Positions 1,318 through 52,268 of a stretch of 64,000 bases of DNA are shown here, piece by piece. The position numbers and the translations under genes are program-made. The notes under the pieces are model-generated. The model ran no database searches and was not told where the DNA came from. It saw only the letters and a program-made list of their open reading frames with translations. Where the stretch lies: the sequence record OK254197.1; one strand, 5' to 3'. The DNA comes from Escherichia phage PNJ1902. The stretch's first letter is position 1. Every line of letters starts with the position of its first letter.

Positions 1318-1325
1318 ATAAGTAT

Positions 1326-1360
1326 AGGATGGGATACTACTCAGTTGGTATCCCATTCCT
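1326..1360 (+). terminator. Stable stem-loop just after terminase stop (possible attenuator/terminator or processing site)
   Basis: About 11 bp stem GGATGGGATAC/GTATCCCATTCC with 10 nt loop; weak U-tract after it. Confidence 0.3.
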
Positions 1361-1488
1361 GCATTTTAAAATCCCCTTTACAAATTCGATACGATTATGT
1401 ATACTATATTCATTGATCGGGAGAACTTCTCCCATAATAGAACGTAAACAAGAAAAATTAGTGCTCTACATGGGGTGTAGGAGATTCT

Positions 1489-2181: not shown

Positions 2182-2590
2182 CGCCATATCGATTATGCGT
2201 GACGGCATTAAATCTAGGTATAGGAGGGGTGATTGCTGTGCAATCTGTGGTAGTAATGATGACCTAGAGTTACATCATTATTTTACTATTTCTCAATTAG
2301 TTAAAAAATTCGCTAAAGAAAATCAATTAGATTTCACTGATGAGGAGATTACCCTATCTAATAGGGAAGCATTCTATAAGCAATATGAGCGAGAGCTAAT
2401 TGAAGAAGTAGTAACACTCTGCCAGCATCACCACCAACTATTACATAAGGTTTACACAAAAGAACCTCCTTTATTTTCTGCTAATAAGCAAAAAGTGTGG
2501 GTTCAAAAGCAGAAAGACAAATTACAGAATCCTCAAGAAAAGACACAAGTCAAGACTGAAACAAAATCAGGATTCGCAAGGTTCTTATAA
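2138..2590 (+). CDS. HNH endonuclease
   Basis: CCAIC...ELHH...CQHHHQLLH gives a classic HNH zinc-finger/catalytic motif; overlaps the previous ORF by 44 nt in another frame (alternative ATG at 2153); stop overlaps portal ATG (TAATG). Confidence 0.75.
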   Translation: MDWRNMATNVKFKRDAISIMRDGIKSRYRRGDCCAICGSNDDLELHHYFTISQLVKKFAKENQLDFTDEEITLSNREAFYKQYERELIEEVVTLCQHHHQLLHKVYTKEPPLFSANKQKVWVQKQKDKLQNPQEKTQVKTETKSGFARFL

Positions 2591-3807: not shown

Positions 3808-4289
3808 TTGATTATAATGGTCTAAAGACCATTTTTGGTGAAAAACTACCAGAATCTCATATCTTCTTTGCTACGGTTGCTGCGCATAAATATGTTCCTA
3901 GCTATGCTTTTCTGCGTAGAGAACTAGGACTTTCATCTGCGCATACTAACCGTAAAGTATGGAAGAAATTTGTAGAGGCTTATGGTAAAGCAGTTCCACC
4001 GGCTCCACCATTAACTCTTTCTAAAGATTTAACTGCTAGCATGTCAGTTGAAGAGGGAGCAGCATTAACACTTTCTGTTACTGCAACTGGTGGTACTGGT
4101 CCATATACTTATGCATGGACTAAAGATGGTTCTCCTATTCCTGGTGCTTCAGGAGCTACCTATACTAAGCCTGCAGCAGCTACAGAGGATTCTGGAGCCT
4201 ATAAAGTAACTGTAACAGATAGTAAGCAAGTAAGCAAGGACTCTGCTACATGTGCTGTGACAGTTAATCCTACTGTTCCTGGAGGCTAA
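3804..4289 (+). CDS. Head decoration protein with C-terminal Ig-like domain (pb10-like)
   Basis: 161 aa; C-terminal GGTGPYTYAWTKDGSPIPGASGATYT...DSGAYKVTVTD is an Ig-like (I-set) signature; sits between portal and protease. Confidence 0.7.
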   Translation: MIDYNGLKTIFGEKLPESHIFFATVAAHKYVPSYAFLRRELGLSSAHTNRKVWKKFVEAYGKAVPPAPPLTLSKDLTASMSVEEGAALTLSVTATGGTGPYTYAWTKDGSPIPGASGATYTKPAAATEDSGAYKVTVTDSKQVSKDSATCAVTVNPTVPGG

Positions 4290-4292
4290 TAA

Positions 4293-4925
4293 ATGACACA
4301 AGCTGCTATTGACTATAACAAGTTAAAATCAGCACCCGTTCATTTAGATGCTTATATTAAATCTATTGATAGCGAATCCAAAGAGGGCGTTGTAAAAATC
4401 CGTGGATTCGCTAATACAATTAGTAAAGATCGCGCTGGTGATGTAATTCCTGCTTCTGCGTGGAAAACATCTAATGCACTTACTAACTATATGAAAAACC
4501 CGATTATTCTTTTCGGACACGATCATCGTCGTCCAATCGGTAAGTGTATTGATCTTAACCCTACTGAAATGGGTCTCGAAATCGAATGCGAGATCTATGA
4601 AAGTTCTGACCCGGCTATCTTTTCACTAATTAAAAACGGTGTACTGAAAACTTTTAGTATCGGATTCCGCTGCCTAGATGCAGAGTGGGATGAAGCTACT
4701 GATATATTTATTATTAAAGATTTAGAACTATACGAAGTTTCGGTAGTTTCTGTACCTTGTAATCAGGACTCAACGTTCAATCTCGCTAAGAGCATGAATG
4801 GTCATGATTATACTGAATGGCGTAAATCTTTTACTGCAATAAGTTCTAAAGCTGTCCCAGCTCAAGAACGTAATCTTTCTGAACTAGAAAAACTTGCGAT
4901 AGCTTTAGGCTACGTTAAAGAATAA
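4293..4925 (+). CDS. Prohead maturation protease (pb11-like, HK97-type)
   Basis: 210 aa ORF immediately upstream of major capsid gene; position and size as in T5. Confidence 0.75.
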   Translation: MTQAAIDYNKLKSAPVHLDAYIKSIDSESKEGVVKIRGFANTISKDRAGDVIPASAWKTSNALTNYMKNPIILFGHDHRRPIGKCIDLNPTEMGLEIECEIYESSDPAIFSLIKNGVLKTFSIGFRCLDAEWDEATDIFIIKDLELYEVSVVSVPCNQDSTFNLAKSMNGHDYTEWRKSFTAISSKAVPAQERNLSELEKLAIALGYVKE

Positions 4926-4942
4926 CGGAGAATTATTTAAAA

Positions 4943-6319
4943 ATGACTATTGATATTAATAAGCTGAAAGAAGAACTTGGTCTGGGTGATCTGGCTAAAT
5001 CTCTGGAAGGTCTGACCGCTGCTCAGAAAGCTGCTGAAGCTGAACGTATGCGTAAAGAGCAGGAAGAAAAAGAACTGGCTCGTATGAATGATCTGGTTTC
5101 TAAAGCAGTTGGCGAAGATCGTCAGAAACTGGAACAAGCTCTGGAACTGGTTAAGTCCCTTGATGAAAAATCTAAAAAGAGTGCAGAACTGTTTGCACAG
5201 ACTGTAGAAAAACAGCAGGAAACTATTGTTGGTCTTCAGGACGAAATCAAATCTCTGCTAGCAGCTCGTGAAGGACGTTCCTTCGTTGGTGATAGTGTAG
5301 CTAAAGCACTGTATGGTACTCAAGAAAACTTTGAAGACGAAGTGGAGAAACTGGTTCTTCTGTCCTACGTGATGGAAAAAGGTGTATTTGATACTGAACA
5401 TGGCCAGAGACACCTGAAAGCTGTAAACCAGTCCTCTTCAGTAGAAGTTTCTAGTGAAAGCTATGAAACTATTTTCTCTCAGCGTATTATTCGTGATCTG
5501 CAGAAAGAACTGGTAGTTGGTGCACTGTTTGAAGAATTGCCGATGTCCAGCAAAATTCTTACTATGCTGGTTGAACCAGATGCTGGTAAAGCTACTTGGG
5601 TAGATGCTGCTACTTACGGTACTGATGCTACTACTGGTGATGAAGTTAAAGGCGCTCTTAAAGAGATCAGCTTCAAAACTTACAAACTGGCTGCTAAATC
5701 CTTTATCACTGATGAAACTGAAGAAGATGCAATCTTCTCTCTGCTGCCTCTGCTGCGTAAACGTCTGATTGAAGCACATGCTGTTTCTATCGAAGAAGCG
5801 TTTATGACTGGTGATGGTTCCGGTAAGCCGAAAGGCCTGTTGACTCTTGCTAGCGAAGATGGTGCTAAAGTTACTACTGAAGCTAAAGCTGATGGTTCTG
5901 TTCTGGTAACTGCTAAAACTATCTCTAAACTGCGTCGTAAACTGGGCCGTCATGGTCTGAAACTGAGCAAACTGGTACTGATTGTATCTATGGATGCTTA
6001 TTACGATCTGCTGGAAGATGAAGAATGGCAGGATGTTGCACAGGTTGGTAACGATGCTGTTAAACTGCAAGGTCAGGTTGGTCGTATTTATGGTCTGCCG
6101 GTTGTAGTTTCTGAATACTTCCCGGCTAAAGCAGTAGATAAAGAGTTCGCAGTTATTGTTTATAAAGATAACTTCGTAATGCCGCGTCAGCGTGCTGTTA
6201 CTGTTGAACGTGAGCGCCAAGCTGGTAAACAGCGTGACGCGTACTACGTCACTCAGCGTGTTAACCTGCAACGTTACTTTGCAAATGGCGTTGTATCCGG
6301 TGCTTACGCTGCATCTTAA
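4943..6319 (+). CDS. Major capsid protein precursor (pb8-like, HK97 fold with N-terminal scaffolding domain)
   Basis: 458 aa; N-terminal coiled-coil-like delta domain MTIDINKLKEELGLGDLAKSLEGL... recognised as T5 major head protein; codon usage is host-optimal (CTG/CGT/GGT rich). Confidence 0.95.
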   Translation: MTIDINKLKEELGLGDLAKSLEGLTAAQKAAEAERMRKEQEEKELARMNDLVSKAVGEDRQKLEQALELVKSLDEKSKKSAELFAQTVEKQQETIVGLQDEIKSLLAAREGRSFVGDSVAKALYGTQENFEDEVEKLVLLSYVMEKGVFDTEHGQRHLKAVNQSSSVEVSSESYETIFSQRIIRDLQKELVVGALFEELPMSSKILTMLVEPDAGKATWVDAATYGTDATTGDEVKGALKEISFKTYKLAAKSFITDETEEDAIFSLLPLLRKRLIEAHAVSIEEAFMTGDGSGKPKGLLTLASEDGAKVTTEAKADGSVLVTAKTISKLRRKLGRHGLKLSKLVLIVSMDAYYDLLEDEEWQDVAQVGNDAVKLQGQVGRIYGLPVVVSEYFPAKAVDKEFAVIVYKDNFVMPRQRAVTVERERQAGKQRDAYYVTQRVNLQRYFANGVVSGAYAAS

Positions 6320-6340
6320 TACAGGCTTTTCAGCCGATAA

Positions 6341-6366
6341 GGAGAGCTTCGGCTCTCCTTTTTTAT
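6341..6366 (+). terminator. Rho-independent terminator after capsid gene
   Basis: GGAGAGC-TTCG-GCTCTCC hairpin followed by TTTTTTATT. Confidence 0.75.
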
Positions 6367-6378
6367 TGGGAAAAATAA

Positions 6379-6891
6379 ATGCAAATCATCACAGCCGAAG
6401 ATTATAGATTATACGGTAGTTTAAAACGACCTGAATTAGAGTCTGGTGTAGAAATGATGATTACTGCTGCCAATGCGCTGATTACGAGCCTTCTAGGCAT
6501 GGATGATGCTGATGCGGTAGACCAGTTAATCAATACAAAACCTACACGTAGGAAATATTTTCTGAGCTCACCATCTGCTACCTCCGTAACTAAAGTGACG
6601 ATTAACGATAATGAGATTGACCCAGAGCAGTATAAGTTATACTCTGACGGTATTATCCTTCTCAAATTTAATCCTCCGGAAGGTTATATGGATGTAGCAT
6701 ATACACAAGGTGGATTCAATCCAATACCTGAAGATCTCAAACTTGCAGCGTGTATGCTAGTAGATCATTGGCATAAACAAGATTACCGCCAAGCTAAAAC
6801 AATTGGTGGTGAAACAGTAACCTTCAATAGCACTAAGTCTGGTATCCCAGAGCATATTCGTACTATTATTGAAGTATATAGGAGAGTATAA
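6379..6891 (+). CDS. Putative head completion / head-tail adaptor protein
   Basis: 170 aa ORF directly after capsid terminator; position in morphogenesis operon; stop overlaps next ATG. Confidence 0.5.
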   Translation: MQIITAEDYRLYGSLKRPELESGVEMMITAANALITSLLGMDDADAVDQLINTKPTRRKYFLSSPSATSVTKVTINDNEIDPEQYKLYSDGIILLKFNPPEGYMDVAYTQGGFNPIPEDLKLAACMLVDHWHKQDYRQAKTIGGETVTFNSTKSGIPEHIRTIIEVYRRV

Positions 6892-7658
6892 TGTCTCTTT
6901 CCGATCTAGCTAAACAAATTATTAAAGAGCAGCTAGATACTGCAGGACGATCTGAAAATAATAAGAATACTGTTGTATACTCTGTTGAAACAGGGTTAAA
7001 AGATCCTACCAGAGATGGTACTGTTGCTCAAGTATCTTTTAAGTTTTCAAAACCTGTATCCCAAAATCTTCTTGATGTTAGAACAGCCTCTATACTAAAA
7101 GCTGTATCCTCTAGTCTAGATCTTTCGGGAGATTTAGGTGCTCTAGAAAATCTTATACAGGCAACTGCTGGCAAAAAATCTGCTGTAGGTAAAAAACGTT
7201 CTACAGGCAGAGTAGAGGTAAACTTTGGGGATCCTAGAGACGTAGAGGATGGATACTCAGGTGCAATAACAGGTGCTTCCGGACGCTTCGTGTCTAATAG
7301 CAATATGAAGGTTATACTAGAGATAGTTGCTAAAGAATACTTAATAAAGGATATGAAGAAGACAGGAGCACCACTAAAATTTAGAACAGGTCGCTTTGCA
7401 AACTCTTTAAAAATTAAAGATGTTATGCTCCGTGATTCTGAGGCTAGTAAAGGCTCCCCTGAATTGAACGTAACATATAATTATATGACTCGTCCATATT
7501 CTGTGTTCAACCCTGCAGTATCTACCTACAGGAGACTATCTCTACGACCTTATCCTGGTGCTAGAAACCCCCAAAAACTTATTGGTGAGGCTATAGCAAA
7601 AGCTGCAAGAGACCTGATTCACTCTAGATATAAAATCAAGGTTAATCAAGGAACATAA
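6891..7658 (+). CDS. Putative neck / tail completion structural protein
   Basis: 255 aa ORF, translationally coupled, between head completion and tail terminator candidates. Confidence 0.4.
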   Translation: MSLSDLAKQIIKEQLDTAGRSENNKNTVVYSVETGLKDPTRDGTVAQVSFKFSKPVSQNLLDVRTASILKAVSSSLDLSGDLGALENLIQATAGKKSAVGKKRSTGRVEVNFGDPRDVEDGYSGAITGASGRFVSNSNMKVILEIVAKEYLIKDMKKTGAPLKFRTGRFANSLKIKDVMLRDSEASKGSPELNVTYNYMTRPYSVFNPAVSTYRRLSLRPYPGARNPQKLIGEAIAKAARDLIHSRYKIKVNQGT

Positions 7659-7661
7659 TAA

Positions 7662-8147
7662 ATGGATCATAGAACAAGTATTGCACAAGCTCTGGTTGAC
7701 CGTATATCTAAACAGTTGGATGGCTCTCAACCTGACGAATATTTTAATAACCTATATGGAAACGTTTCTCGTCAAACTTATAAATTTGAGGAAATACGAG
7801 AGTTTCCTTATGTGGCAGTTCATATCGGAACTGAAACTGGGCAGTATCTTCCTTCGGGCCAACAGTGGATGTTTTTAGAACTTCCAATCCTGGTGTATGA
7901 TAAAGAGAAAACAGACATTCAAGAGCAACTTGAAAAACTCGTAGCGGATATAAAAACCGTTATTGACACAGGTGGAAATTTAGAATATACTGTTAGTAAA
8001 CCTAATGGATCGACCTTCCCATGTGAGGCAACTGATATGATCATTACATCAGTTAGTACAGATGAGGGTCTACTGGCCCCATATGGTTTAGCAGAAATAA
8101 ATGTAACAGTGAGGTATCAGCCTCCACGTAGGTCACTTCGCAGATAA
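7662..8147 (+). CDS. Putative tail terminator / tail completion protein (p142-like)
   Basis: 161 aa ORF immediately upstream of tail tube gene. Confidence 0.45.
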   Translation: MDHRTSIAQALVDRISKQLDGSQPDEYFNNLYGNVSRQTYKFEEIREFPYVAVHIGTETGQYLPSGQQWMFLELPILVYDKEKTDIQEQLEKLVADIKTVIDTGGNLEYTVSKPNGSTFPCEATDMIITSVSTDEGLLAPYGLAEINVTVRYQPPRRSLRR

Positions 8148-8173
8148 GTTACAGATTAGGAGAAAATAATTAA

Positions 8174-9568
8174 ATGTCTTTACAACTATTACGTAATACT
8201 CGAATCTTCGTGTCTACGGTTAAGACTGGTCATGATAAGACCAACACGCAAGAGATTCTAGTTCAGGATGATATTTCTTGGGGTCAGGACAGTAACTCAA
8301 CAGATATTACTGTTAATGAAGCTGGTCCGCGTCCAACTCGTGGTTCTAAACGTTTTAATGACTCTTTAAACGCGGCTGAGTGGAGTTTCTCTACTTATAT
8401 CCTGCCATACAAAGATAAAACTACTAATAAACAGATTGTTCCTGACTATATGTTATGGCACGCTCTTTCTAGTGGTAAAGCTCTTAACCTGGAAGGTGAT
8501 ACAGGGGCACATAATAACGAAACCAATTTTATGGTTAACTTTAAAGATAACGCGTACCACGAGCTGGCAATGCTGCATATCTACATCCTGACTGACAAAG
8601 CATGGAGTTATATCGATTCCTGTCAGATTAATCAGGCAGAAGTTAACGTTGATATTGAGGATATTGGTCGTGTAACTTGGTCTGGTAATGGTAACCAGCT
8701 TATTCCTCTGGATGCGCAACCATTTGATCCAGATGAGGTAGGTATTGATGATGAAACTTATATGACTATTCAGAGTTCTTATATCAAGAACAAATTGACT
8801 ATCCTGAAAATTAAGGATATGGATTCTGATAAGGCATATGATATCCCTATTACTGGTGGTACTTTCACCATTAATAATAACATCACGTATCTAACCCCGA
8901 ATATTATGTCCCGTGTAAATATTCCGATCGGTTCATTTACTGGCGCATTTGAACTAACTGGTTCATTAACTGCTTATCTGAATGATAAATCTCTTGGTTC
9001 TATGGAGCTGTACAAAGATCTTATCAAAACCCTGAAGGTAGTTAACCGCTTCGAAATTGCTCTAGTACTTGGTGGTGAATACGATGAAGAACGTCCTGCG
9101 GCTATTCTGGTAGCTAAACAAGCACACGTTAATATTCCTACTATTGAAACTGATGATGTACTTGGTACTTCAGTAGAGTTTAAAGCTATTCCATCTGATC
9201 TGGATGCTGGTGATGAAGGTTACTTAGGCTTCTCTAGTAAATATACCAAAACAACTATTAATAACTTGATTGTTAATGGTGATGGTGCTACTAATGCTGT
9301 AACCGCAATTACTGTTAAATCTGCTGGTGATGCTACTACAGTAAACAACTCGGCTACTCTTCAAATGAGTGTTGAAGTTACTCCTTCTTCCGCAAAGAAT
9401 AAGGAAGTTACTTGGGCTATCACTGCCGGTGATGCAGCTACTATCAGTGCAACCGGACTGTTAACAGCAGATGCTATTAAAACTGGTGCAGTTACTGTAG
9501 AAGCTACTGCTAAAGATGGTTCTGGAGTTAAAGGTACTAAACAGATTACTGTAACAGCAGGTGGCTAA
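8174..9568 (+). CDS. Tail tube protein (pb6-like) with C-terminal Big_2-type Ig-like domain
   Basis: 464 aa; C-terminal ITVKSAGDATTVNNSATLQMSVEVTP...VTVEATAKDGSGVKGTKQITV Ig-like domain; host-optimal codon usage; size equals T5 pb6. Confidence 0.85.
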   Translation: MSLQLLRNTRIFVSTVKTGHDKTNTQEILVQDDISWGQDSNSTDITVNEAGPRPTRGSKRFNDSLNAAEWSFSTYILPYKDKTTNKQIVPDYMLWHALSSGKALNLEGDTGAHNNETNFMVNFKDNAYHELAMLHIYILTDKAWSYIDSCQINQAEVNVDIEDIGRVTWSGNGNQLIPLDAQPFDPDEVGIDDETYMTIQSSYIKNKLTILKIKDMDSDKAYDIPITGGTFTINNNITYLTPNIMSRVNIPIGSFTGAFELTGSLTAYLNDKSLGSMELYKDLIKTLKVVNRFEIALVLGGEYDEERPAAILVAKQAHVNIPTIETDDVLGTSVEFKAIPSDLDAGDEGYLGFSSKYTKTTINNLIVNGDGATNAVTAITVKSAGDATTVNNSATLQMSVEVTPSSAKNKEVTWAITAGDAATISATGLLTADAIKTGAVTVEATAKDGSGVKGTKQITVTAGG

Positions 9569-9572
9569 TTAA

Positions 9573-10472
9573 ATGTACTACTCTCTAATGAGAGAGTCAA
9601 AAGTTATAGTTGAGTATGATGGTAGGGCATTTCATTTTGATGCCCTATCAAACTATGATATACAGACTTCCTACGAGGAATTCAAGACTCTTCGTAGGAC
9701 TGTTCATCGTAGAACTAACTATGCAGACTCTATTATAAATGCTCAAACTCCCTCTTCTATCTCTCTAGCAGTAAATTTCAGCAATACTCTTACGGAGGCT
9801 AACTTCTTTGAATGGTTAGGTTTTGATAGAAAAGGTAATACTTTCTTACTCCCACTATATAGTAATAATATTGAACCTATTATGTTCAATATCTATATAG
9901 TAAACAAAGATAATAACTGTGTATATTTTGAAAACTGCTATGTATCTACAGTAGATTTTTCTTTAGATAAGAATATACCAATTCTTAATGTTGGTATTGA
10001 ATCGGGGAAATTTTCCGAAGTATCTACATATAGAGAAGCAGCTTCTATTATACAGGGTGAAGTAATGTCTTATAGCCCAGTAGTAGCTTCTACTAATGGT
10101 AGCATCTTACCCGGTCTTATCTCTGCCTCTTTATCTTTCCAGCAGCAGTGCTCTTGGAGAGAAGATAAGAGTGTTTTTGATATAAATAAAATTTATAATA
10201 ATAAAAGAGCTTATGTAACCGAAATGAATGCTTCGGCAACCATTTCTCTATACTACTTAAAACGTTTTGCAGGAGATATGGTTTATAATATAGAACCGGA
10301 GATAGATGTACCTTTAACGATAAGAAATAATAATATTTCTATAGATTTTCCTTCAGCACGTATTACAAAACGCCTAGAGTTCTCAGATGTGTATAGAGTT
10401 GAGTGGGATATTATACCTACTACTTCTTCAGACCCAGTGAGAATAGATTTCTTTGGAGAAATTAAAAAATGA
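9573..10472 (+). CDS. Putative tail protein (p140-like, tube-associated/collar)
   Basis: 299 aa ORF after tail tube; AT-rich codon usage; synteny with T5. Confidence 0.45.
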   Translation: MYYSLMRESKVIVEYDGRAFHFDALSNYDIQTSYEEFKTLRRTVHRRTNYADSIINAQTPSSISLAVNFSNTLTEANFFEWLGFDRKGNTFLLPLYSNNIEPIMFNIYIVNKDNNCVYFENCYVSTVDFSLDKNIPILNVGIESGKFSEVSTYREAASIIQGEVMSYSPVVASTNGSILPGLISASLSFQQQCSWREDKSVFDINKIYNNKRAYVTEMNASATISLYYLKRFAGDMVYNIEPEIDVPLTIRNNNISIDFPSARITKRLEFSDVYRVEWDIIPTTSSDPVRIDFFGEIKK

Positions 10473-10873
10473 TTAATTTAAAAGATATTACTCTTGATAC
10501 TCGTACTATTACTCTTTCCTACCCAGGTATGCCGAACTTTAAACTAGAACTTAACTATATGTCTCGTGCTACCTCTAAACGTGTTATTTCTTCTGCTAAA
10601 CGCGATGAATGGGTTAACGGTACTTTGGTTCAGGTACAGGATGATGATAAGTTTATTGAAGCTTTCGTCGATGCTGCGATTAAAGGTTGGACTGGTTTGA
10701 CTGTAGGTGACGTTGAAAAACTGATGCTGATTGAAACAGATGCTGATCCTGAGACTGAAGTTCCTTTTAGTCGCGATAATGCTGTAATGCTTATGCAGAA
10801 CTCTGCTGCGTTTGATTCTTGGATCAACCAGACAGTGTTCCACTTAGACACTTTTCGTAGCCCAAAAGCGTAA
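10469..10873 (+). CDS. Putative tail assembly chaperone
   Basis: 134 aa acidic ORF upstream of tape measure gene; ATGA overlap with previous gene. Confidence 0.35.
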   Translation: MINLKDITLDTRTITLSYPGMPNFKLELNYMSRATSKRVISSAKRDEWVNGTLVQVQDDDKFIEAFVDAAIKGWTGLTVGDVEKLMLIETDADPETEVPFSRDNAVMLMQNSAAFDSWINQTVFHLDTFRSPKA

Positions 10874-10934
10874 AGAACTTCTAGATGCTGTTGCTGATTT
10901 TGCAGATAAATGTATTAAAAGCTCAGCATCTAAA

Positions 10935-11303
10935 ATGACTAAACAACAATATTTAATACTTTGCGAGTCAATGGGTATAGAGCCTGATCCTAAGGCTATG
11001 CCCGTTGAACTCGAAGATTTTCCACCTATTGTATCTATTAGTATGAATATTTATAATAGTCTAATTGACTGTTTCATACCTGGTGACTTTCCTATTTTTA
11101 TAGGCAAGGATAAGGCTGCATTAGGTGTTTTATTTGATATTTATGGGATTACTGATCCTATAGAAAAAGAATTTGTTCTACACATTATCAATATATTTGA
11201 TGCTAAAGCTGTAGATGCTGCACGTAAACGTGCTGAGAAGCATAAACCGCAAAACGGGAGGATTCCTAACGTTAAGCCACATGCTAGATCTCGTGCACGG
11301 TAA
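10935..11303 (+). CDS. Hypothetical protein (possible second tail assembly chaperone)
   Basis: 122 aa ORF between chaperone candidate and tape measure gene. Confidence 0.3.
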   Translation: MTKQQYLILCESMGIEPDPKAMPVELEDFPPIVSISMNIYNSLIDCFIPGDFPIFIGKDKAALGVLFDIYGITDPIEKEFVLHIINIFDAKAVDAARKRAEKHKPQNGRIPNVKPHARSRAR

Positions 11304-11338
11304 AAGTTTCCTCCAATGGGCGTTCCACGATGAGGCTT

Positions 11339-11370
11339 GGCTCTGGGTGATTTGCCCAGAGCCTTTTTTA
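11339..11370 (+). terminator. Rho-independent terminator upstream of tape measure gene
   Basis: GGCTCTGGG-loop-CCCAGAGCC hairpin plus TTTTTTA; followed by the same TTATTGGGAAAATAAA motif seen after the capsid terminator. Confidence 0.7.
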
Positions 11371-11385
11371 TTGGGAAAATAAAAC

Positions 11386-14300
11386 ATGACTGATAAGCTA
11401 ATACGAGAATTACTAATAGACGTTAAACAGAAGGGGGCAACTCGTACTGCAAAGTCTATTGAAAACGTATCTGATGCGTTAGAAAACGCTGCTGCTGCTT
11501 CCGAACTGACAAATGAGCAGTTAGGTAAAATGCCCAAAACCCTTTACTCCATTGAGAGGGCAGCAGATAGAGCAGCAAAAAGTCTTACTAAAATGCAAGC
11601 AAGCCGAGGTATGCTTAGTGTTACTAAATCTATAAATGATATAGGGGCTAAGTTAGATGACCTTGCTATCCAACTTATTGAAGTAACAGATAAACTAGAG
11701 ATGGGATTCGATGGAGTTTCTAGATCTGTTAAAGCAATGGGTAATGATGTTGCAGCTGCAACAGAGAAAGTTCAAGATAGATTATATGATACTAATAGAG
11801 CATTAGGTGGCACATCTAGGGGTTTTAATGATACTGCTGGTGCCGCTGGTAGAGCTTCTAGAGCTATTGGTAATACTTCTGGTTCAGCACGTGGCGCCAC
11901 TCGTGATTTTGCAGCAATGGCTAAGATCGGTGGTGGTTTACCTATACTATATGCAGCTATTGCTTCCAACATCTACGTTTTACAATCTGCATTCGAACAA
12001 CTTAAACTAGGTGATCAGCTAAACAGATTGGAACAGTTTGGTGTTATAGTAGGTACTCAGACAGGTACTCCTGTTCAGTCCCTTGCTAGATCGCTACAAG
12101 AAGCTGCTGGATATGCAATCTCTTTTGAAGAAGCTATGCGTCAAGCATCTACTGCCTCCGCTTATGGATTTGACAATGAACAACTGGAGCAGTTTGGTTT
12201 GATAGCACGTCGTGCGGCTGCTGTTCTTGGTGTTGATATGACTGATGCACTTAACCGTGTAATTAAGGGTATATCTAAACAAGAAATCGAACTTATGGAT
12301 GAACTTGGTATTACTATTCGTCTTAACGATGCTTATGCTGACTATGTTAAACAGCTAAATGCTGCTAACACGGGTATAACTTATAACATTAATAGTCTTA
12401 CTACTTTCCAGAAACAGCAGGCATACGCTAAGGCTGCTATAGCAGAATCTACTAAACAATTCGGGTATCTAGATGAAGTTCTGCGTGCTACTCCGTGGGA
12501 GCAGTTTGCTGCTAACGCAGATGCTGCACTAAGAACAATACAACAAGCTGCTGCTAAGTATTTAGGGCCAGTAGTCGATGCCATCAATACGGTATTCTAT
12601 ATATCTCAGGCTTCTATATCTGCTGAAGCAGCTAGAGCTCAAGAAAAAACTAATAAACAGATAGATCCTACCAACGTTGGTGCTGTTGCTTTAAGTTTAT
12701 CTGCTTCTGAAGAGGGGTATAATAAAGCTCTGGATATGTATAGAGAGTCTCTGGATAAACGTAACAAACTAAAGGCCGAGTTTGATAAACGTATGTCCCA
12801 AGCAGATGCTAGTACTGCAGCCGCTATTAGATTGGTGGGTGAGGGAATGCCTGTTGGGTTAGCTGCTGGAGGATTTGAAGTAGGAGGAGTGCGCATAGGT
12901 TCTTCCGAAGCTAACAAACAATTTGTAGCAGAAACTGCCGCTATGGGACTACAAGTAGCACGCTTAGATAAAGAAGTTGCAGATTCTACTGAAAACCTTA
13001 ATGCTTGGAAATCAGCGTTTCAAACTGCCGGAGCTGCTGTTGCAAAAGCTAATCCAGAGTTCCAGAAACAGATTAATCTACAGAAAGATGCTACGGATCC
13101 TGATGCTGTATATGACTTTAACTCTGCTGCTCTAAAGGGTCTAGTAGAGCAACAAAAAGCATATAATCAAACTAAGAAAACTTCTGGTGATTTAGCTAAT
13201 GACTTTCAAAATATAGCTAGTAGCACAGATACTGCTGCTAAAACTAGTGCAACTTTTGAAGAGGTAATTAGAAATGTAGAATCTCTCTCCGCAGGAACTG
13301 GTAAGAGTGCTGATGAGTACGTTAAAAGTCTCAACTTAGGGTTTAACACTCTATCTGAAATGAAAACTGCATCCCAGGCGCTATCTGAATACGTTAAATT
13401 AACTGGTAATGAAACTAAAAATCAGTTAGCAGTCCAACAGAAGATAGCTGACGTATACAACCAAACTAAAGATAAAGAAAAGGCACAGGAAGCCGGTAGG
13501 CATTTAGAACTCCAACAGTTAGAAGAGCGAGAAGCTGCTTTACGCCGTGTTCTTCAAACAAACCAGGGAAATAAAGCTGTTGAGAAAGAAATTGAAAAAG
13601 TTCAGCTGGAGAAACTTAAACTTACTAACCAGGATATGGAAGCTAAGAAGAAAGTTAAGGACTATACGGATAAAATTCTTGGTGTTGATCGTGAGATAGC
13701 TCTTCTGAATGACCGTACTATGACTACTACTCAGTATCGTTTGGCGCAGTTAAGACTAGAGCTACAGTTAGAGCAGGAAAAAACGGAATTATACTCTAAA
13801 CAAGCGGATGGCCAAGCTAAAGCAGAACAGTCTAGACGTGCTCAAGCGCAAATAAGTAGAGAACTATGGGAAGCGGAGAAACAAGCTACTGCCTCGCATG
13901 TGTCAGCTCTCATGGATGCCTTAGAGGTTAGCCAAACGCAGAGAAATGTCACTGGTCAGTCCCAGATTCTCACTGAAAGGTTATCTATTCTGCAGCAACA
14001 GCTGGAGCTATCTAAAGATAATACTGAAGAAGAAATTAAATATCGTAATGAGATTTATAAAACTTCAGCAGCCTTAGAACAGCTTAAAAAGCAAAGAGAG
14101 GATCAAAAGTACAAATCAGTCGTATCCTCACTAGGGGGTACCTTCACTCCTACCTATGGATTATCTGGTGCTGATAAGGAGTTTGCTGATTTTGAGAATA
14201 GAATGTCTATGTATGATCAGGCTATAGCTAAGATGTCAGAAGTAGATTCTGCTTCTACAGCACTGGCTAACAGCATAGGTAATTTCTCCTTAGCAGTGGT

Positions 14301-15093
14301 GGCTAATGCACAAGATAGCTTGGATAGTATAACAACCATATCTGCAGGTATGCAGATGGTGGGACAGATGATGGCATATTCCGCTAACCAGCAAATAAGT
14401 GCAATAGACCAGGCTATTGCAGCAGAACAGAAGCGTGATGGTAAATCTGAGGAATCTAAAGCTAAAATCAAGAAGTTGGAGGCAGAAAAGACTAAGATAC
14501 AGCAGCGAGAAGCTAAAAAGCAAATAATCATATCTACAGCCGTAGCTATGATGAACGCTGCAGCTACCCGTCCGTTCTTACCATTAGGGTTAACGATGAT
14601 GGCCACTGCGGCTGCTGCAGGTGCACTATCCTTAGCCTCTGCTTCTAGTGCATCCTCTATACCCTCTGTGGATTCTGGAGCAAATACAACTAGTTACTTA
14701 ACCTTAGGAGAGCGCCAAAAGAATATAGATGTGTCTATGTCTGCTAATGCTGGTGAATTATCTTATATTCGTGGCGATAAAGGCATAGGCGGTGCTAACT
14801 CTTTCGTTCCTCGTGCTGAGGGTGGTAATATGTACCCTGGGGTTAGCTATCAAATGGGTGAACATGGTACAGAAGTAGTTACCCCTATGGTTCCTATGAA
14901 AGCTACACCTAATGATGAGCTAAAAACTTCATCTAACTCAACTTCAGGAAGACCTATCATCCTGAATATTAGTGCTATGGATGCTGCAAGTTTTAGAGAG
15001 TTTGCTTCTAGTAATAGTGGTGCTCTAAGAGACGCAGTAGAATTAGCTCTGAATGAGAACGGTGCTAGTCTGAAAACATTGGGAAATTCTTAA
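11386..15093 (+). CDS. Tail tape measure protein (pb2-like)
   Basis: 1235 aa; long alanine/glutamine-rich coiled-coil regions, C-terminal hydrophobic segment; position before distal tail protein. Confidence 0.9.
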   Translation: MTDKLIRELLIDVKQKGATRTAKSIENVSDALENAAAASELTNEQLGKMPKTLYSIERAADRAAKSLTKMQASRGMLSVTKSINDIGAKLDDLAIQLIEVTDKLEMGFDGVSRSVKAMGNDVAAATEKVQDRLYDTNRALGGTSRGFNDTAGAAGRASRAIGNTSGSARGATRDFAAMAKIGGGLPILYAAIASNIYVLQSAFEQLKLGDQLNRLEQFGVIVGTQTGTPVQSLARSLQEAAGYAISFEEAMRQASTASAYGFDNEQLEQFGLIARRAAAVLGVDMTDALNRVIKGISKQEIELMDELGITIRLNDAYADYVKQLNAANTGITYNINSLTTFQKQQAYAKAAIAESTKQFGYLDEVLRATPWEQFAANADAALRTIQQAAAKYLGPVVDAINTVFYISQASISAEAARAQEKTNKQIDPTNVGAVALSLSASEEGYNKALDMYRESLDKRNKLKAEFDKRMSQADASTAAAIRLVGEGMPVGLAAGGFEVGGVRIGSSEANKQFVAETAAMGLQVARLDKEVADSTENLNAWKSAFQTAGAAVAKANPEFQKQINLQKDATDPDAVYDFNSAALKGLVEQQKAYNQTKKTSGDLANDFQNIASSTDTAAKTSATFEEVIRNVESLSAGTGKSADEYVKSLNLGFNTLSEMKTASQALSEYVKLTGNETKNQLAVQQKIADVYNQTKDKEKAQEAGRHLELQQLEEREAALRRVLQTNQGNKAVEKEIEKVQLEKLKLTNQDMEAKKKVKDYTDKILGVDREIALLNDRTMTTTQYRLAQLRLELQLEQEKTELYSKQADGQAKAEQSRRAQAQISRELWEAEKQATASHVSALMDALEVSQTQRNVTGQSQILTERLSILQQQLELSKDNTEEEIKYRNEIYKTSAALEQLKKQREDQKYKSVVSSLGGTFTPTYGLSGADKEFADFENRMSMYDQAIAKMSEVDSASTALANSIGNFSLAVVANAQDSLDSITTISAGMQMVGQMMAYSANQQISAIDQAIAAEQKRDGKSEESKAKIKKLEAEKTKIQQREAKKQIIISTAVAMMNAAATRPFLPLGLTMMATAAAAGALSLASASSASSIPSVDSGANTTSYLTLGERQKNIDVSMSANAGELSYIRGDKGIGGANSFVPRAEGGNMYPGVSYQMGEHGTEVVTPMVPMKATPNDELKTSSNSTSGRPIILNISAMDAASFREFASSNSGALRDAVELALNENGASLKTLGNS

Positions 15094-15098
15094 AACTG

Positions 15099-15128
15099 GA
15101 GGAGGACTTTGAGTCCTCCTTTTCTTTA
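15099..15128 (+). terminator. Rho-independent terminator after tape measure gene
   Basis: GGAGGAC-TTTGA-GTCCTCC hairpin followed by TTTTCTTTAT. Confidence 0.7.
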
Positions 15129-15146
15129 TGGAAAAATAAAAATTTC

Positions 15147-15175
15147 TTGATAAAATTTTCTAATACTATTATAAT
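15147..15175 (+). promoter_or_regulatory. Sigma70-like promoter upstream of distal tail protein gene
   Basis: TTGATA - 17 bp - TATAAT, followed by strong RBS AAAGAGGAGAAA. Confidence 0.5.
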
Positions 15176-15202
15176 ATTGTTATTAAAGAGGAGAAATTAA
15201 CT

Positions 15203-15817
15203 ATGAGATTACCAGACCCATACACGAATCCAGAACTTTCAGGCTTAGGATTCGAAAGTGTTAACCTGATTGATAATGACCCAGTAATTCGTGATGAGTT
15301 ACCAAATGGTAAAGTTAACGAAGTTAAGGTATCTGCTCAATACTGGGGTATAAATATTTCTTATCCAGAATTATTTCCAGATGAATATAGTGTTCTAGAT
15401 GCTTTTATTCTAGAATACAAAAGGACTGGTGGTTATATTGATGTTATACTACCACAATACGAAGCTTTTAGAGTTAGAGGTAATACTAGTCTAGTAAGTA
15501 TACCTGCTGGACAGAAGGGTTCTAATATAACTATGGATACAAAAGGACTTCTTACAGGTACTCCAAAACCTGGTGACCTGTTTAAGCTGTCCAACCACCC
15601 AAAAGTATATAAAATAACATCATTCAGTAAATCAGGCAATACGTGGTCTATGAACTTATACCCTGATTTATTTATAACTACTACTGGAGCAGAGAAGCCA
15701 GTATTTAATGGAATACTATTTAGAACAAAACTTATGAATGGTGATGCTTTTGGATCTACACTAAATAATAATGGAACATACTCCAACATCTCATTAAACT
15801 TACGGGAAAGTCTATGA
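15203..15817 (+). CDS. Distal tail protein (pb9-like)
   Basis: 204 aa, same length as T5 pb9; directly after tape measure; ATGA overlap with next gene. Confidence 0.8.
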   Translation: MRLPDPYTNPELSGLGFESVNLIDNDPVIRDELPNGKVNEVKVSAQYWGINISYPELFPDEYSVLDAFILEYKRTGGYIDVILPQYEAFRVRGNTSLVSIPAGQKGSNITMDTKGLLTGTPKPGDLFKLSNHPKVYKITSFSKSGNTWSMNLYPDLFITTTGAEKPVFNGILFRTKLMNGDAFGSTLNNNGTYSNISLNLRESL

Positions 15818-18663
15818 AAAAAATATTAGATAGTGCTAGAAGCTACTTAAAAACTAACAGCAGAATAAAAACTGCTAGTCTAATTTCTCTAGAGTTGCCT
15901 AGCTCTACTGGTACTAGTACTGCTTTTATTTATTTAACTGATTATTTTAGAGATGTACTATATAATGGTATTTTGTATCAGGCTGGTAAAGTTAAATCTA
16001 TTAGCGCACATAAACAAAACAGAGATTTATCTATTGGCAGTCTATCTTTTACTATTACGGGTACAGCGCAGGATGAAGTACTGAAATTAGTGCAGAATGG
16101 TGTGTCCTTTTTAGATAGAACAGTATCAATCCACCAAGCAATTATTACAGAGGATGGTTCTATTTTACCTGTAGACCCAGACACAAACGGGCCTTTATTA
16201 TACTTTAGAGGTAGAATTACTGGTGGAGGTATTAAGGATAATATTAGTACTTCGGGAGTTGGAACCTCCACAATTACTTGGAATTGTTCTAACCAATTCT
16301 ATGATTTTGATAGGGTTAATGGTAGATTTACTGACGATGCTTCTCACAGAGGGCTTGAAGTTGTGGCAGGACAATTAGTTCCATCTAACGGGGCTAAAAG
16401 ACTTGAATATCAAGAAGATTATGGGTTCTTTCATGCTAATAAAAGTATCTCTATTTTAGCAAAATATCAGGTACAGGAAGAAAGATACAAGCTAAAGTCT
16501 AAGAAAAAGCTATTTGGCTTATCTAGAAGCTATAGTCTTAAAAAGTATTATGAGACTGTTACTAAAGAAGTAGATATAGATTTTAACCTTGCTGCTAAAT
16601 ATATACCAGTAGTTTATGGTGTACAGAAAATACCTGGAATACCTATTTTTGCGGATACGGAATTACATAATCCTAATATAGTTTACGTAGTATATGCTTT
16701 TGCTGAAGGAGAGATAGACGGTTTTCTTGACTTTTCCTTTGGTGATAATCCTATGATTTGTATGGACTCTAATGATAGCTCTGCTAGAACCTGCTTCGGT
16801 GTTAAAAAAGTAGCAGGAGACACCATGCAAAGAATAGCATCAGGAATATCTTCTAGTAGTCCTTCTGTGCATGGCCAGGAATATAAATATAACGATGGTA
16901 ATGGTGATATAAGGATTTGGACTTATCATGGAAAAGCCGATCAAACTGCTTCTGAAGTATTAGTAAATATAGCGAAGGAGCGTGGGTTCTATCTCCAAAG
17001 TATGAACGGTAATGGACCTGAGTACTGGGATGCTAGATATAAACTATTAGATACTGCATACGCGGTAGTACGCTTTACTATTAATGAAAATAGAACTGAG
17101 ATCCCAGAAGTTAGTGCTGAGATTCAGGGTAAGAAGATAAAAATCTATCATTCTGATGGTAGAGTAACTGCTAATAGCACTAGTTTAAATGGTATCTGGC
17201 AAACACTTGATTACTTAACTTCAGATAGATACGGTGCCAACATTACTATTGATCAGTTCCCTCTTCAACAATTGATACAAGAAGCTGCTATCCTAGATAT
17301 TATAGATGAATCTTACCAAGTATCCTGGCAGCCATACTGGAGATATGTTGGGTGGACTGATCCATTAGCAGAAAATAGACAAATAGTACAAATGAATACT
17401 ATTCTAGATACATCTGAATCTGTATTTAAAAACGTGCAAGGTTTACTAGAGTCCTACGGTGGGGCTATTAACAACTTATCTGGTCAATATAGAATTACTG
17501 TAGAAAAATATTCTAATACTCCATTAGAGATTAATTTTCCGGATACTTATGGTGATTTAGAGCTATCAGATACTACTGGTAGAAATAAATTCAACTCAGT
17601 TCAAGCATCTATCGTAGACCCGGCTCTTAGCTGGAAGACTAACTCTATTACCTTTTACAACTCTAAATATAAAGAGCAAGATAAAAATTTAGACAAAAAA
17701 TTACAATTATCTTTTGCAAATATAACTAACTACTATACTGCTAGAAGTTTTGCAGACAGAGAACTTAAGAAATCTAGGTATTCTAGAACCCTCTCATTTT
17801 CTTTACCATATCAATTCATTGGTATTGAACCTAACGATGCTATTGCATTTACATACGACCGTTACGGATGGGATAAGAAGTACTTTTTAGTAGATGAAGT
17901 CGAAAACTCTAGGGAAGGAAAGATAAATGTTACTTTACAGGAGTATGGGGAAGATGTATTTATCAACTCTGATCAAGTAGATAATAGTGGTAATGATATA
18001 CCAGATATTAGTAACAATGTTCTTCCTCCTAGAGATTTTAAATATACCCCTACACCCGGTGGTTTAGTTGGTTCTATAGGAAAAAATGGTGAGTTATCTT
18101 GGCTTCCAAGCTTAACTAATAATGTAGTTTATTACTCTATCGTGCATTCCGGTCATGCTGAGCCTTATATTGTGCAGCAACTAGAAACAAATCCCAATGA
18201 ACGCATGATCCAAGAGATAATTGGAGAGCCTGCAGGTTTAGCAATATTTGAAATAAGGGCTGTGGATATAAATGGTAGGAGAAGTTCTCCAGTAACATTA
18301 TCTATAGAACTTAACTCTGCTAAAAACCTAAGCGTAGTATCTAATTTTAGGGTAACTAATACGGCTTCTGGGGATGTAACTGAGTTTGTAGGCCCAGATG
18401 TAAAACTAGCTTGGGATAGGATACCAGAAGAAGATATAATAGAAAGTATATTCTATACTCTGGAGATCTATGATTCTCAGAATAGAATGCTAAGAAGTGT
18501 ACGTATTGAAAATCAGTATACTTATGACTATTTATTAATGTATAATAAGGCAGATTTTGCTCTTCATAACAGCGATGCTCTAGGAATCAATAGAAAACTA
18601 TATTTTCGTATTAGAGCAGAAGGAGATGATGGAGAACAGTCTGTGGAGTGGGCATCCATTTAA
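15814..18663 (+). CDS. Baseplate hub / tail tip protein (pb3-like)
   Basis: 949 aa, same length as T5 pb3; synteny. Confidence 0.85.
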   Translation: MKKILDSARSYLKTNSRIKTASLISLELPSSTGTSTAFIYLTDYFRDVLYNGILYQAGKVKSISAHKQNRDLSIGSLSFTITGTAQDEVLKLVQNGVSFLDRTVSIHQAIITEDGSILPVDPDTNGPLLYFRGRITGGGIKDNISTSGVGTSTITWNCSNQFYDFDRVNGRFTDDASHRGLEVVAGQLVPSNGAKRLEYQEDYGFFHANKSISILAKYQVQEERYKLKSKKKLFGLSRSYSLKKYYETVTKEVDIDFNLAAKYIPVVYGVQKIPGIPIFADTELHNPNIVYVVYAFAEGEIDGFLDFSFGDNPMICMDSNDSSARTCFGVKKVAGDTMQRIASGISSSSPSVHGQEYKYNDGNGDIRIWTYHGKADQTASEVLVNIAKERGFYLQSMNGNGPEYWDARYKLLDTAYAVVRFTINENRTEIPEVSAEIQGKKIKIYHSDGRVTANSTSLNGIWQTLDYLTSDRYGANITIDQFPLQQLIQEAAILDIIDESYQVSWQPYWRYVGWTDPLAENRQIVQMNTILDTSESVFKNVQGLLESYGGAINNLSGQYRITVEKYSNTPLEINFPDTYGDLELSDTTGRNKFNSVQASIVDPALSWKTNSITFYNSKYKEQDKNLDKKLQLSFANITNYYTARSFADRELKKSRYSRTLSFSLPYQFIGIEPNDAIAFTYDRYGWDKKYFLVDEVENSREGKINVTLQEYGEDVFINSDQVDNSGNDIPDISNNVLPPRDFKYTPTPGGLVGSIGKNGELSWLPSLTNNVVYYSIVHSGHAEPYIVQQLETNPNERMIQEIIGEPAGLAIFEIRAVDINGRRSSPVTLSIELNSAKNLSVVSNFRVTNTASGDVTEFVGPDVKLAWDRIPEEDIIESIFYTLEIYDSQNRMLRSVRIENQYTYDYLLMYNKADFALHNSDALGINRKLYFRIRAEGDDGEQSVEWASI

Positions 18664-20726: not shown

Positions 20727-21149
20727 ATGAGTACTGAAAATAGAGTTATAGACTTAGTGATAGATGAGAAAGTACCTTATGGTCTAATGATGCAATTCTT
20801 AGATGTTGATGATAGTACTTATCCACCTACAAATACCCCTGTTAATTTAACAGGGTATTCCCTAAGGGGTACTATAAAGGCCGGGCTTGATGAGAACGCG
20901 GAAACTTTGGCATCTTTTACTACTAAAATTATTGATGCTGCTCAAGGTGCTATAGCTATAAGTTTACCTGTAGAGGCGGTAGATAATATTGGCGAAAAAG
21001 CTACCAAAGAGAGAGATAAGTATAACCCTCGCCAACGTTTTGCAGGATACTATGATATAATTATGACACGAGACGTCATAGGATCAGCTATTAGTTCTTT
21101 TCGTATAATGGAGGGTAAAGTATTTATCAGTGATGGGGTAACTAAATAA
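20727..21149 (+). CDS. Collar protein (p132-like)
   Basis: 140 aa ORF between pb4-like and tail fibre genes; size matches T5 p132. Confidence 0.6.
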
Positions 21150-29110: not shown

Positions 29111-29117
29111 CTATTTA

Positions 29118-52018: not shown

Positions 52019-52019
52019 T

Positions 52020-52262: not shown

Positions 52263-52268
52263 TATACA

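Follow-up and report, generated by a model that had tools for sequence, protein, structure and literature searches.

Two junctions in the late region of this phage, site A after the major capsid gene and site B before the tape-measure gene, are very probably leaky intrinsic (Rho-independent) terminators whose U-tracts run directly into the ribosome-binding site (RBS) of the next gene. Most likely, T5-like phages thereby produce capsid and tail-tube protein in large amounts and the products of the genes further downstream in small ones. The sequence that A and B share is a composite of terminator U-tract, Shine-Dalgarno and spacer, and no special cassette. The window (the whole 64-kb stretch of DNA analysed) is the late region of a T5-like phage (Demerecviridae), matching Salmonella phage L6jm at 96.7%, and its gene order is that of annotated T5-like relatives.

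Anatomy of the repeated sequence

A terminator followed by a shared sequence, the core of the original prediction, does recur here: CTTTTTTATTGGGAAAA comes after the hairpins at 6339-6360 and 11339-11363 and leads into an ATG, and this 17-mer has exactly two copies in the window, at 6358 and 11363. The two junctions comprise:

4943-6319: major capsid gene
6326-6337, + strand: small hairpin GGC-TTTTCA-GCC in the 3' untranslated region of the major capsid gene
6339-6360, + strand: terminator A hairpin, 9 bp with a UUCG loop, 20 nt past the major capsid gene stop
6359-6367, + strand: terminator A U-tract TTTTTTATT, the first half of the reported motif
6368-6378, + strand: RBS of the head-completion gene, GGGA at 6368-6371 plus spacer AAAATAA
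6379-6891: head-completion gene
11304-11338, + strand: conserved non-coding block AAGTTTCCTCCAATGGGCGTTCCACGATGAGGCTT, 35 nt, between the chaperone stop and terminator B
11339-11363, + strand: terminator B hairpin, 11 pairs, past the tape-measure chaperone ORFs
11364-11372, + strand: terminator B U-tract TTTTTTATT
11373-11385, + strand: RBS of the tape-measure gene pb2, GGGA plus spacer AAATAAAAC
11386-15093: tape-measure gene pb2

Read directly, site A is AAGGAGAGC-TTCG-GCTCTCCTT at 6339-6360, then TTTTATTGGGAAAAATAA and the ATG at 6379; site B is GGCTCTGGGTG-ATT-TGCCCAGAGCC at 11339-11363, then TTTTTTATTGGGAAAATAAAAC and the ATG at 11386. Within the composite, TTTTTTATT is the U-tract, GGGA a weak Shine-Dalgarno, and AAAA(A)TAA(AAC) an A-rich spacer before the ATG, which lies 18-22 nt 3' of the hairpin at both sites. 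The GGGA stands 7 nt (A) or 9 nt (B) from the ATG, within the 5-12 nt expected of a Shine-Dalgarno, and its duplex with the 16S 3' end has an energy of -4.2 kcal/mol at both, near the weak end of the range among late genes having a Shine-Dalgarno (-4.0 to -9.3 kcal/mol); pb3 likewise uses GGGAAA. The start codons at A and B match those of annotated orthologues, and for T5 pb2 the record annotates identification by N-terminal sequencing. A G+C-rich hairpin with a U-tract immediately next to it on the coding strand, the mark of an intrinsic terminator, is present at A, at B and at a third site, C, past the tape-measure gene, and all three hairpins are among the four top-ranked terminator-like sites in a scan of window positions 1-20000.

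Searched with up to 3 mismatches, shuffled sequence is expected to give 0.56 matches to the 17-mer, and 2 matches were reached in 10 of 100 shuffles; sequence statistics alone do not make a lone 17-mer repeat very improbable in DNA rich in A and T. The non-random part is the setting, a terminator hairpin immediately on one side and a start codon immediately on the other, together with conservation in relatives. A repeat finder joins 6357-6379, 11362-11384 (91%) and 15118-15140 (83%) in one family. Two broader candidates were rejected: a dispersed motif family, the 12-mer occurring at chance level with up to 2 mismatches (14 found vs 11.7 expected), and GGAGAGC-TTCG-GCTCTCC as a T5-specific signature, this being a terminator of generic type that many unrelated viral contigs contain. 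In those contigs, too, an RBS and ATG often follow.

No promoter fits between hairpin and ATG at A or B, and the downstream genes would therefore be expressed by read-through; since read-through would be the sole transcription route of both, termination would have to be partial. If a sigma-70-like promoter is taken as a pair of -35 and -10 hexamers, 16-18 nt apart, with 10 or more of 12 matches, 0 of 29 distinct sequences at A and 0 of 28 at B have one up to 120 nt from the hairpin. The suggestion that partial termination is coupled to translation initiation thus stands to this extent, that the U-tract physically joins the Shine-Dalgarno and spacer and that partial termination is implied by read-through. 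We observe the anatomy, conservation and in-place substitutions of the junctions directly; we infer the partial efficiency of termination and its stoichiometric role, the lack of promoter room being the sole ground for leakiness.

On paper, stems of 9-11 bp and tails with 8 U in 9 make these sites strong terminators, for which little read-through would be predicted, and this speaks against leakiness.

Conservation of the junctions and the third site

Relatives were sampled through the capsid protein, giving 79 loci and, as distinct sequences, 29 for site A, 28 for site B and 17 for site C. Across the 79 loci, terminators lie about 20 nt, 4.65-5.7 kb and 8.2-9.5 kb past the capsid-gene stop, all three positions holding down to about 46% capsid-protein identity and that of site A down to 44%. 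Of the distinct sites, 26 of 29 at A and 26 of 28 at B have a start codon no more than 35 nt past the hairpin, compared with 0 of 17 at C. The intergenic regions at A and B (60-83 nt) are more conserved than flanking coding DNA in 6 of 6 comparisons.

The motif itself is kept only in part: terminators and U-tracts persist in relatives, but GGGAAAA is swapped in place for GGAGG, GGAGA, GAGGA, AGGAG or AGGTGA. Specifically, i) at A, a hairpin plus U-tract occupies the position in 29 distinct T5-like sequences, the stems differ yet stay complementary, T5-6 A T T is kept across genera in the U-tract, and the Shine-Dalgarno is replaced in other lineages by GAGG, GGAGG, GGAGA or AGGAG; this terminator is annotated as such in AKFV33, Sepoy and Spivey, and the RBS in Sepoy and Spivey; ii) at B, the terminator is present in 28 distinct sequences 4.65-5.7 kb past the capsid-gene stop and is annotated in AKFV33 and Spivey, 5 of its 9 stem pairs show compensatory changes on both sides in a 10-sequence alignment, the A-run and spacer length vary freely in close relatives with GGG 8-12 nt from the ATG, and elsewhere the Shine-Dalgarno becomes GGAA, AGGTGA, GAGG or GGAGG; iii) phage T5 carries an additional ORF immediately 3' of TTTTTTATT, an insertion that splits the motif exactly between TTATT and GGG, and pb2, thus parted from TTTTTTATT, has a different RBS, AGGAAAACATTAG; and iv) Enterobacter phage KKP_3711 keeps TTTTTTATTG at site B and has a new AGGTGA nearer the ATG.

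The third site and the internal promoters comprise:

15098-15122, + strand: terminator C hairpin, past the tape-measure gene
15120-15146, + strand: U-tract TTTTCTTTAT, then GGAAAAATAAAAATTTC, the A/T-rich upstream ('-43', UP-like) promoter region
15147-15175, + strand: sigma-70 promoter TTGATA-17-TATAAT (T5 P-G25) driving pb9, 11/12 matches
15188-15193 and 15203: pb9 start, Shine-Dalgarno GAGGAG and ATG
7963-7991, + strand: sigma-70 promoter TTGACA-17-TATACT ahead of the tail-tube gene, 11/12 matches
8174-9568: tail-tube gene

Read directly, the hairpin at 15098-15122 is followed by TCTTTATGGAAAAATAAAAATTTC; the scan counted 11 pairs (with a 7-bp G+C-rich core) and the U-tract TTTTCTTTAT. The terminator lies 8.2 to 9.5 kb past the capsid-gene stop in 17 distinct sequences, and its position is annotated as a terminator in AKFV33 and Spivey. 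The predicted variant after 15099 does exist as a looser copy, but it leads to the promoter at 15147-15175 and not to an ATG, which is a different arrangement. The likeness of site C to the motif comes from its U-tract and the A/T-rich upstream region of the promoter, which adjoins the -35 hexamer on its upstream side. T5-type promoters carry AAAAATT around -43 (PMC3326045), and the stretch 15130-15175 resembles T5 P-G25 in position and sequence, with AAAAATT just 5' of TTGATA-17-TATAAT, a likeness that concerns the third copy only and has no bearing on translation initiation. The T5 st0 record names the promoter at the position of 15147-15175 P-G25, that of AKFV33 also has a promoter there, and a promoter matching at least 10 of 12 within 120 nt is found at 13 of the 17 distinct C sites; the string GGAAAAAT is not conserved outside Tequintavirus and Epseptimavirus. 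As to the other promoter, T5 st0 has P-J5 annotated inside the orthologous gene T5p142, upstream of pb6, and the placement of 7963-7991 matches it, a correspondence by gene order with the sequences unaligned.

Under the leaky-terminator account, host sigma-70 RNA polymerase would terminate at A, past the very abundant major capsid gene (775 capsid protein copies per virion; PMC7472727), and at B, past the tail-tube, minor-tail and chaperone genes; the smaller share of polymerases, reading through, would give the sole transcripts with the head-completion genes (past A) or the tape-measure gene (past B), and translation of these genes would start from a weak Shine-Dalgarno whose A/U-rich surroundings are unstructured; site C would act as a terminator followed by a restart promoter; and the terminators, together with the internal promoters at 7963-7991 and 15147-15175, would set expression tiers matching virion stoichiometry. 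ATTGGGAAAA would then be exchangeable, neutrally, for an unrelated RBS of equal strength.

Alternative explanations and the block before terminator B

The hairpins might mainly be RNA stability or processing elements, protecting 3' ends after RNase cleavage of a long late transcript, with expression tiers stemming from differential mRNA decay. Both 3' untranslated regions hold two putative hairpins in tandem that would suit this (6326-6337 plus A; the block 11304-11338 plus B), and placement directly past highly expressed genes also befits a stabiliser. The small hairpin at 6326-6337 is predicted in several folds, and in Klebsiella, Proteus, Providencia and Pectobacterium relatives GGC-N5-6-GCC is retained while the loop varies. 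A pure stabiliser, however, needs no U-tract, and canonical U-tracts follow all hairpins and are conserved family-wide; we consider this explanation unlikely, while stressing that stability and termination are not exclusive roles.

Also improbable, in our judgement, is a regulated attenuator or a clamp that hides the Shine-Dalgarno, the 5' flank pairing with U-tract and Shine-Dalgarno on read-through transcripts (CCGAUA with UAUUGG at A; UUCCACGAUGAG with UUUAUUGGGAA at B). Such a clamp would close around the terminator and hold translation down, and the motif, being one strand of its helix, would be kept for that reason. The minimum-free-energy fold for A and the centroid fold for B do contain the extended helices, Vibrio phage folds show a comparable pairing of UCCACGAG with UUCGU..GGA, and the extremely conserved block upstream of B holds two anti-SD-like strings. 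Yet U-rich tails pair with any purine-rich stretch via G-U pairs, and double compensatory changes are not seen in the clamp; the consensus fold of B gives the terminator stem with no clamp or other consensus structure beyond it, and that of A, from a poorly registered alignment with the Vibrio hairpins out of register, also lacks one. Predicted Shine-Dalgarno accessibility with native vs shuffled upstream sequence is 0.45 vs 0.47 at A and 0.50 vs 0.53 at B, and its z score falls below -1.5 in only 3 of 30 (A) and 5 of 29 (B) sequences. A local AU hairpin, UUUAUU/AAUAAA with the Shine-Dalgarno in its loop, was rejected at -1.5 kcal/mol, no better than shuffles, and positions 6000-15400 have no meaningful Rfam match to a described structured RNA at E up to 5.

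The proposed duplicated module fared poorly. Were the cassette spread by recombination or gene conversion, or recognised by a mobile-element nuclease, identity between A and B would reflect descent or homogenisation and not function; Epseptimavirus members do share an identical 25 nt, CCTTTTTTATTGGGAAAAATAAATG, at A and B, and some relatives carry insertions at the two junctions, the inserted ORFs belonging to a single family (CapR-homology domain plus zinc finger); the junctions tolerate gene insertions. But A and B have different hairpins and different sequence everywhere upstream of them, the 64 kb contain no more than two good copies, and A-B identity within the same genome is no higher than across lineages (0.52 vs 0.50; 24 lineages), which leaves this origin very unlikely. 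The idea of a late-promoter or re-initiation element for phage-modified RNA polymerase, which recurrence ahead of late genes and a third copy adjoining a real promoter might recommend, we regard as practically negligible, given an ATG 18-22 nt past the hairpin with no room for a leader, a G-rich core whose place in relatives is taken by canonical Shine-Dalgarno sequences, the lack of any sigma-70-like promoter up to 120 nt from the hairpin in all distinct A and B sequences, and the reported use of ordinary sigma-70 promoters by T5 late genes (PMC7472727).

Near-perfect conservation of TTATTGG across genera exceeds the needs of a minimal 'U-tract plus Shine-Dalgarno' reading, and so does conservation of the 35-nt block before terminator B. 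Of 539 phage records, 394 match a 66-nt query containing that block (11301-11366) at 99% identity or more, and motifs of the block are kept in Vibrio relatives, UUUCCUCCA and UUCCACGAG from T5 to Vibrio phages. Coding is rejected as an explanation (1-nt indels between relatives, ATG not conserved), as is a stable hairpin (folding energy no better than shuffles), and the block has no Rfam match. Block and terminator B could conceivably form a functional RNA of about 65 nt, a doubtful reading; such an RNA might serve as a small RNA derived from the 3'UTR, its seed being anti-Shine-Dalgarno, or as the operator of a phage RNA-binding protein; if so, control of tape-measure synthesis or of other targets would be possible, and part of the conservation of TTATTGGGA would reflect pairing with the block. 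Only this block may merit an experiment.

Relation to known systems

We wish to stress that the junction terminators and RBSs are already known from related GenBank annotation, and that the finding is ordinary and changes no concept. AKFV33 (NC_017969), Sepoy (MK728825) and Spivey (MK630230) carry the same three sites as terminators and GGG/GGA as ribosome_binding_site, the records making no comment on the sequence identity of A and B or on family-wide conservation. What emerges is an ordinary account of the way in which T5-like phages probably set different expression levels inside a single block of late genes, with terminators past the capsid and tail-tube/chaperone genes, weak RBSs next, and promoters that restart transcription before the tail-tube and baseplate genes, of use in the annotation and engineering of T5-like phages, which are popular for therapy and biocontrol.

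T7-like phages have a leaky terminator, T-phi, after gene 10 (major capsid), and phiX174 likewise has leaky terminators. As proposed for the sites described here, an intrinsic terminator lies past the most abundant structural gene, the downstream genes are reached by read-through only, and expression steps down. T7, however, has its own RNA polymerase, whereas here the polymerase would be the host sigma-70 enzyme (PMC7472727) and the terminator tail abuts the next RBS. The likeness to T-phi is also qualified in that read-through in T5-like phages is inferred, neither T5 transcript 3'-end maps nor read-through measurements being found in the searchable literature.

In E. coli, attenuating terminators stand within operons, as in the rplL-rpoB attenuator and the terminator before dnaG in rpsU-dnaG-rpoD. 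These too are partial Rho-independent terminators that yield different protein levels from one promoter, as would the sites in the phage; they belong to cellular operons with longer leaders, whereas the phage junctions are compressed into 60-83 nt of intergenic DNA, with the ATG 18-22 nt past the hairpin.

Late genes and the three hairpin junctions

Positions 6000-12000 of the window match 549 phage records, overwhelmingly T5-like phages (best match Salmonella phage L6jm, 96.7%), and open reading frames together with annotated relatives yield the following gene map.

Late genes of the window (basis throughout: ORFs and annotated relatives)
4943-6319, + strand, major capsid protein pb8
6379-6891, + strand, head-completion gene
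up to 8147, + strand, two further head/tail-completion genes
8174-9568, + strand, tail tube pb6
9573-10472, + strand, minor tail protein
10469-10873 and 10935-11303, + strand, two tape-measure chaperone ORFs
11386-15093, + strand, tape measure pb2
15203-15817, + strand, distal tail protein pb9

Predicted terminators lie after the capsid gene (site A: hairpin AAGGAGAGC-TTCG-GCTCTCCTT at 6339-6360, then TTTTATTGGGAAAAATAA and the ATG at 6379), before the tape-measure gene (site B: hairpin at 11339-11363, then TTTTTTATTGGGAAAATAAAAC and the ATG at 11386), and after it (site C: hairpin at 15098-15122, then TCTTTATGGAAAAATAAAAATTTC). Direct reading of the sequence confirms the terminator, shared sequence and ATG that the original prediction described at A and B. 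All three sites fall within the four top-ranked terminator-like sites of the first 20 kb, and a repeat finder places them in one family. The 17-mer CTTTTTTATTGGGAAAA occurs exactly twice in the window, and a relaxed 12-mer turns up about as often as chance predicts (14 copies versus 11.7 expected), so that the motif is not dispersed; its non-random feature is its context.

The second chaperone ORF (10935-11303) has no Shine-Dalgarno sequence (-0.1 kcal/mol); its reading frame, offset by +1 (or -2) from the first, already runs open at 10848, within the 3′ end of ORF 10469-10873, and CCCAAAAG lies at 10861. This suggests a programmed frameshift fusion (window 10848-10935) of the kind seen in the G/GT chaperones of other phages. 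At 21467-22123, within the large ORF 21149-23839, units of 21 nt and 75 nt repeat in tandem and in frame, probably as repeats of a tail-fibre protein.

Junctions A and B across T5-like relatives

The comparison set for the three intergenic regions comprised annotated genomes from six further genera (Tequintavirus, Epseptimavirus, Sugarlandvirus, Novosibvirus, Priunavirus, and Hongcheonvirus), one Enterobacter phage, three Vibrio phages, and 79 loci drawn from a viral contig collection by capsid-protein alignment. In these relatives a hairpin and U-tract recur at about 20 nt, 4.65-5.7 kb and 8.2-9.5 kb past the capsid-gene stop, a placement kept to about 46% capsid-protein identity (44% for site A). 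A start codon lies within 35 nt of the hairpin in 26 of 29 distinct sequences at A, 26 of 28 at B, and none of 17 at C. At A and B the sequence past the hairpin follows one grammar throughout, in which a T-run (usually TTTTTTATT) leads to a purine cluster rich in G, then to a spacer rich in A and the ATG.

Because the purine cluster varies freely between lineages (TTTTTTATTGGAGGTAATAAAATG, TTTTTATTGGAGGTAGCCAATG, TTTTTTATTGAGGAAAATATATG, TTTTTTGTGGAGGTAAAATG, TTTTTTATAGGTGAAATTCATATG, or TTTTTTATTAGAGGTATATAATG), the GGGA of the window is a Shine-Dalgarno sequence. Its computed pairing with the 3′ end of 16S rRNA, -4.2 kcal/mol for A and B alike, is near the weak end of the range for late genes possessing one (-4.0 to -9.3 kcal/mol), and the pb3 gene also uses GGGAAA. 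Three natural experiments show that the motif is modular: i) in T5 an extra ORF directly follows TTTTTTATT at site B, and pb2 then has another ribosome site, AGGAAAACATTAG; ii) Enterobacter phage KKP_3711 retains TTTTTTATTG at site B, with a new AGGTGA nearer the ATG; and iii) close relatives differ in A-run and spacer length, the GGG-to-ATG distance being 8-12 nt.

In some relatives both junctions are insertion sites for ORFs that combine a Pfam CapR-homology domain with a treble-clef zinc finger (T5 st0, locus L003, 15079-15831; relatives' loci L138 from 11467, L141 from 11465, L174 from 10289). In T5 the ORF separates the terminator B U-tract from pb2, and in NR01-like phages it follows the capsid-gene stop and precedes terminator A; these ORFs may be mobile nuclease-type genes favouring such conserved intergenic sites.

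The A and B intergenic regions are more conserved than flanking coding DNA in 6/6 comparisons (83% for both versus 54-66% against Providencia phage PSTCR5), and so are under selection. The duplicated module originally proposed finds no support, nor does gene conversion: A and B are no more alike within a genome than between lineages (identity 0.52 versus 0.50), and their hairpins are unrelated, so that the likeness is best explained by a shared, narrow functional grammar. The A hairpin, GGAGAGC-UUCG-GCUCUCC, is a generic terminator found in many unrelated viral contigs, often before a ribosome site and ATG.

A near copy of the A hairpin, AAGGAGATCTTCGGGTCTCCTT, at 54722-54743 precedes a promoter, TTGCTA-17-TATAAT, at 54761-54789, an order typical of the early region. 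Three additional terminator-then-start junctions lie at 40433-40449 (-), 59889-59904 (+), and 29093-29112 (-); in two of them the U-tract runs straight into a TTTGGGA or TTTGGAG ribosome site, and at 29112-29093 (-) the start codon is 12 nt past the hairpin with no visible Shine-Dalgarno.

A clamp, in which sequence 5′ of each hairpin pairs with the 3′ U-tract and Shine-Dalgarno, appears in predicted folds at A and B; it is nonetheless very improbable, since its helices are missing from consensus folds (the A alignment being poorly registered for Vibrio sequences) and predicted Shine-Dalgarno accessibility is equal with native and shuffled upstream sequence. The terminator B stem has five compensatory pairs, and no meaningful Rfam family match was found. 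Just upstream of terminator A is a small GGC-N6-GCC hairpin (6326-6337), its stem kept and loop variable in five other genera; in some predicted folds the GCCGA next to it can instead pair with the ribosome-site UUGG.

Between the chaperone stop and terminator B lies a strikingly conserved 35-nt block, AAGTTTCCTCCAATGGGCGTTCCACGATGAGGCTT (11304-11338), non-coding as judged by 1-nt indels among relatives and more conserved than neighbouring genes: a 66-nt query containing it is at least 99% identical in 394/539 records, and Vibrio T5-like relatives retain UCCUC(C)A and UUCCACGAG from it. It contains anti-SD-like strings and has no Rfam match; a stable fold does not explain its conservation, no fold being significant.

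Site C and the promoters

The site C terminator is followed by TTGATA-17-TATAAT (15147-15175, score 11 of 12), which bears the name P-G25 in the T5 st0 annotation and is labelled 'promoter' in AKFV33; pb9 has its real ribosome site, GAGGAG, at 15188-15193. GGAAAAATAAAAATTTC fills the stretch leading up to the -35 hexamer; an A/T-rich '-43' region, AAAAATT, is a feature of T5-type promoters (PMC3326045). Since this stretch is A/T-rich and different in sequence outside Tequintavirus and Epseptimavirus, the likeness of C is that of a U-tract plus A/T-rich promoter DNA: the variant copy noted after 15099 is present, but leads into a sigma-70 promoter and is not an element shared with A and B. Of the 17 site C sequences, 13 have a sigma-70-like promoter that scores 10 or more of 12 and lies within 120 nt of the hairpin. 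A further promoter of the window, at 7963-7991, matches T5 P-J5 in placement. At 51146-63753, about nine repeated 49-62 nt units (TTGCT(T/A)-17-TATAATAT, with upstream AAAAATT) are strong T5-type early promoters.

Expression of the late genes

The terminators at A and B are coupled to the next gene as originally proposed, in being fused to its ribosome-binding site; a late-promoter-like element finds no support: by the same criterion 0/29 A and 0/28 B sequences have a promoter. As the hairpin-to-ATG gap is only 18-22 nt and no promoter fits, the head-completion and tape-measure genes would be transcribed only by terminator read-through. A handful of copies of their proteins suffices. In T5, late transcription is the work of host sigma-70 polymerase acting at ordinary strong promoters, and each virion requires 775 copies of capsid protein (PMC7472727). 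The late region is most likely a tiered operon, in which i) the capsid gene would end at terminator A; ii) the completion genes would lead to the promoter at 7963-7991; iii) tail tube, minor tail protein, and chaperones would end at terminator B; iv) the tape measure would end at terminator C; and v) P-G25 would drive the baseplate genes. In this coherent reading, termination efficiency and stoichiometric purpose are inferred.

The anatomy of the junctions and its conservation are demonstrated. We conclude that the finding is real but ordinary, namely intrinsic terminators fused to the next ribosome-binding site and one terminator-promoter junction, elements already known from related genomes: the AKFV33, Sepoy, and Spivey records label these very sites 'terminator' and 'ribosome_binding_site'.
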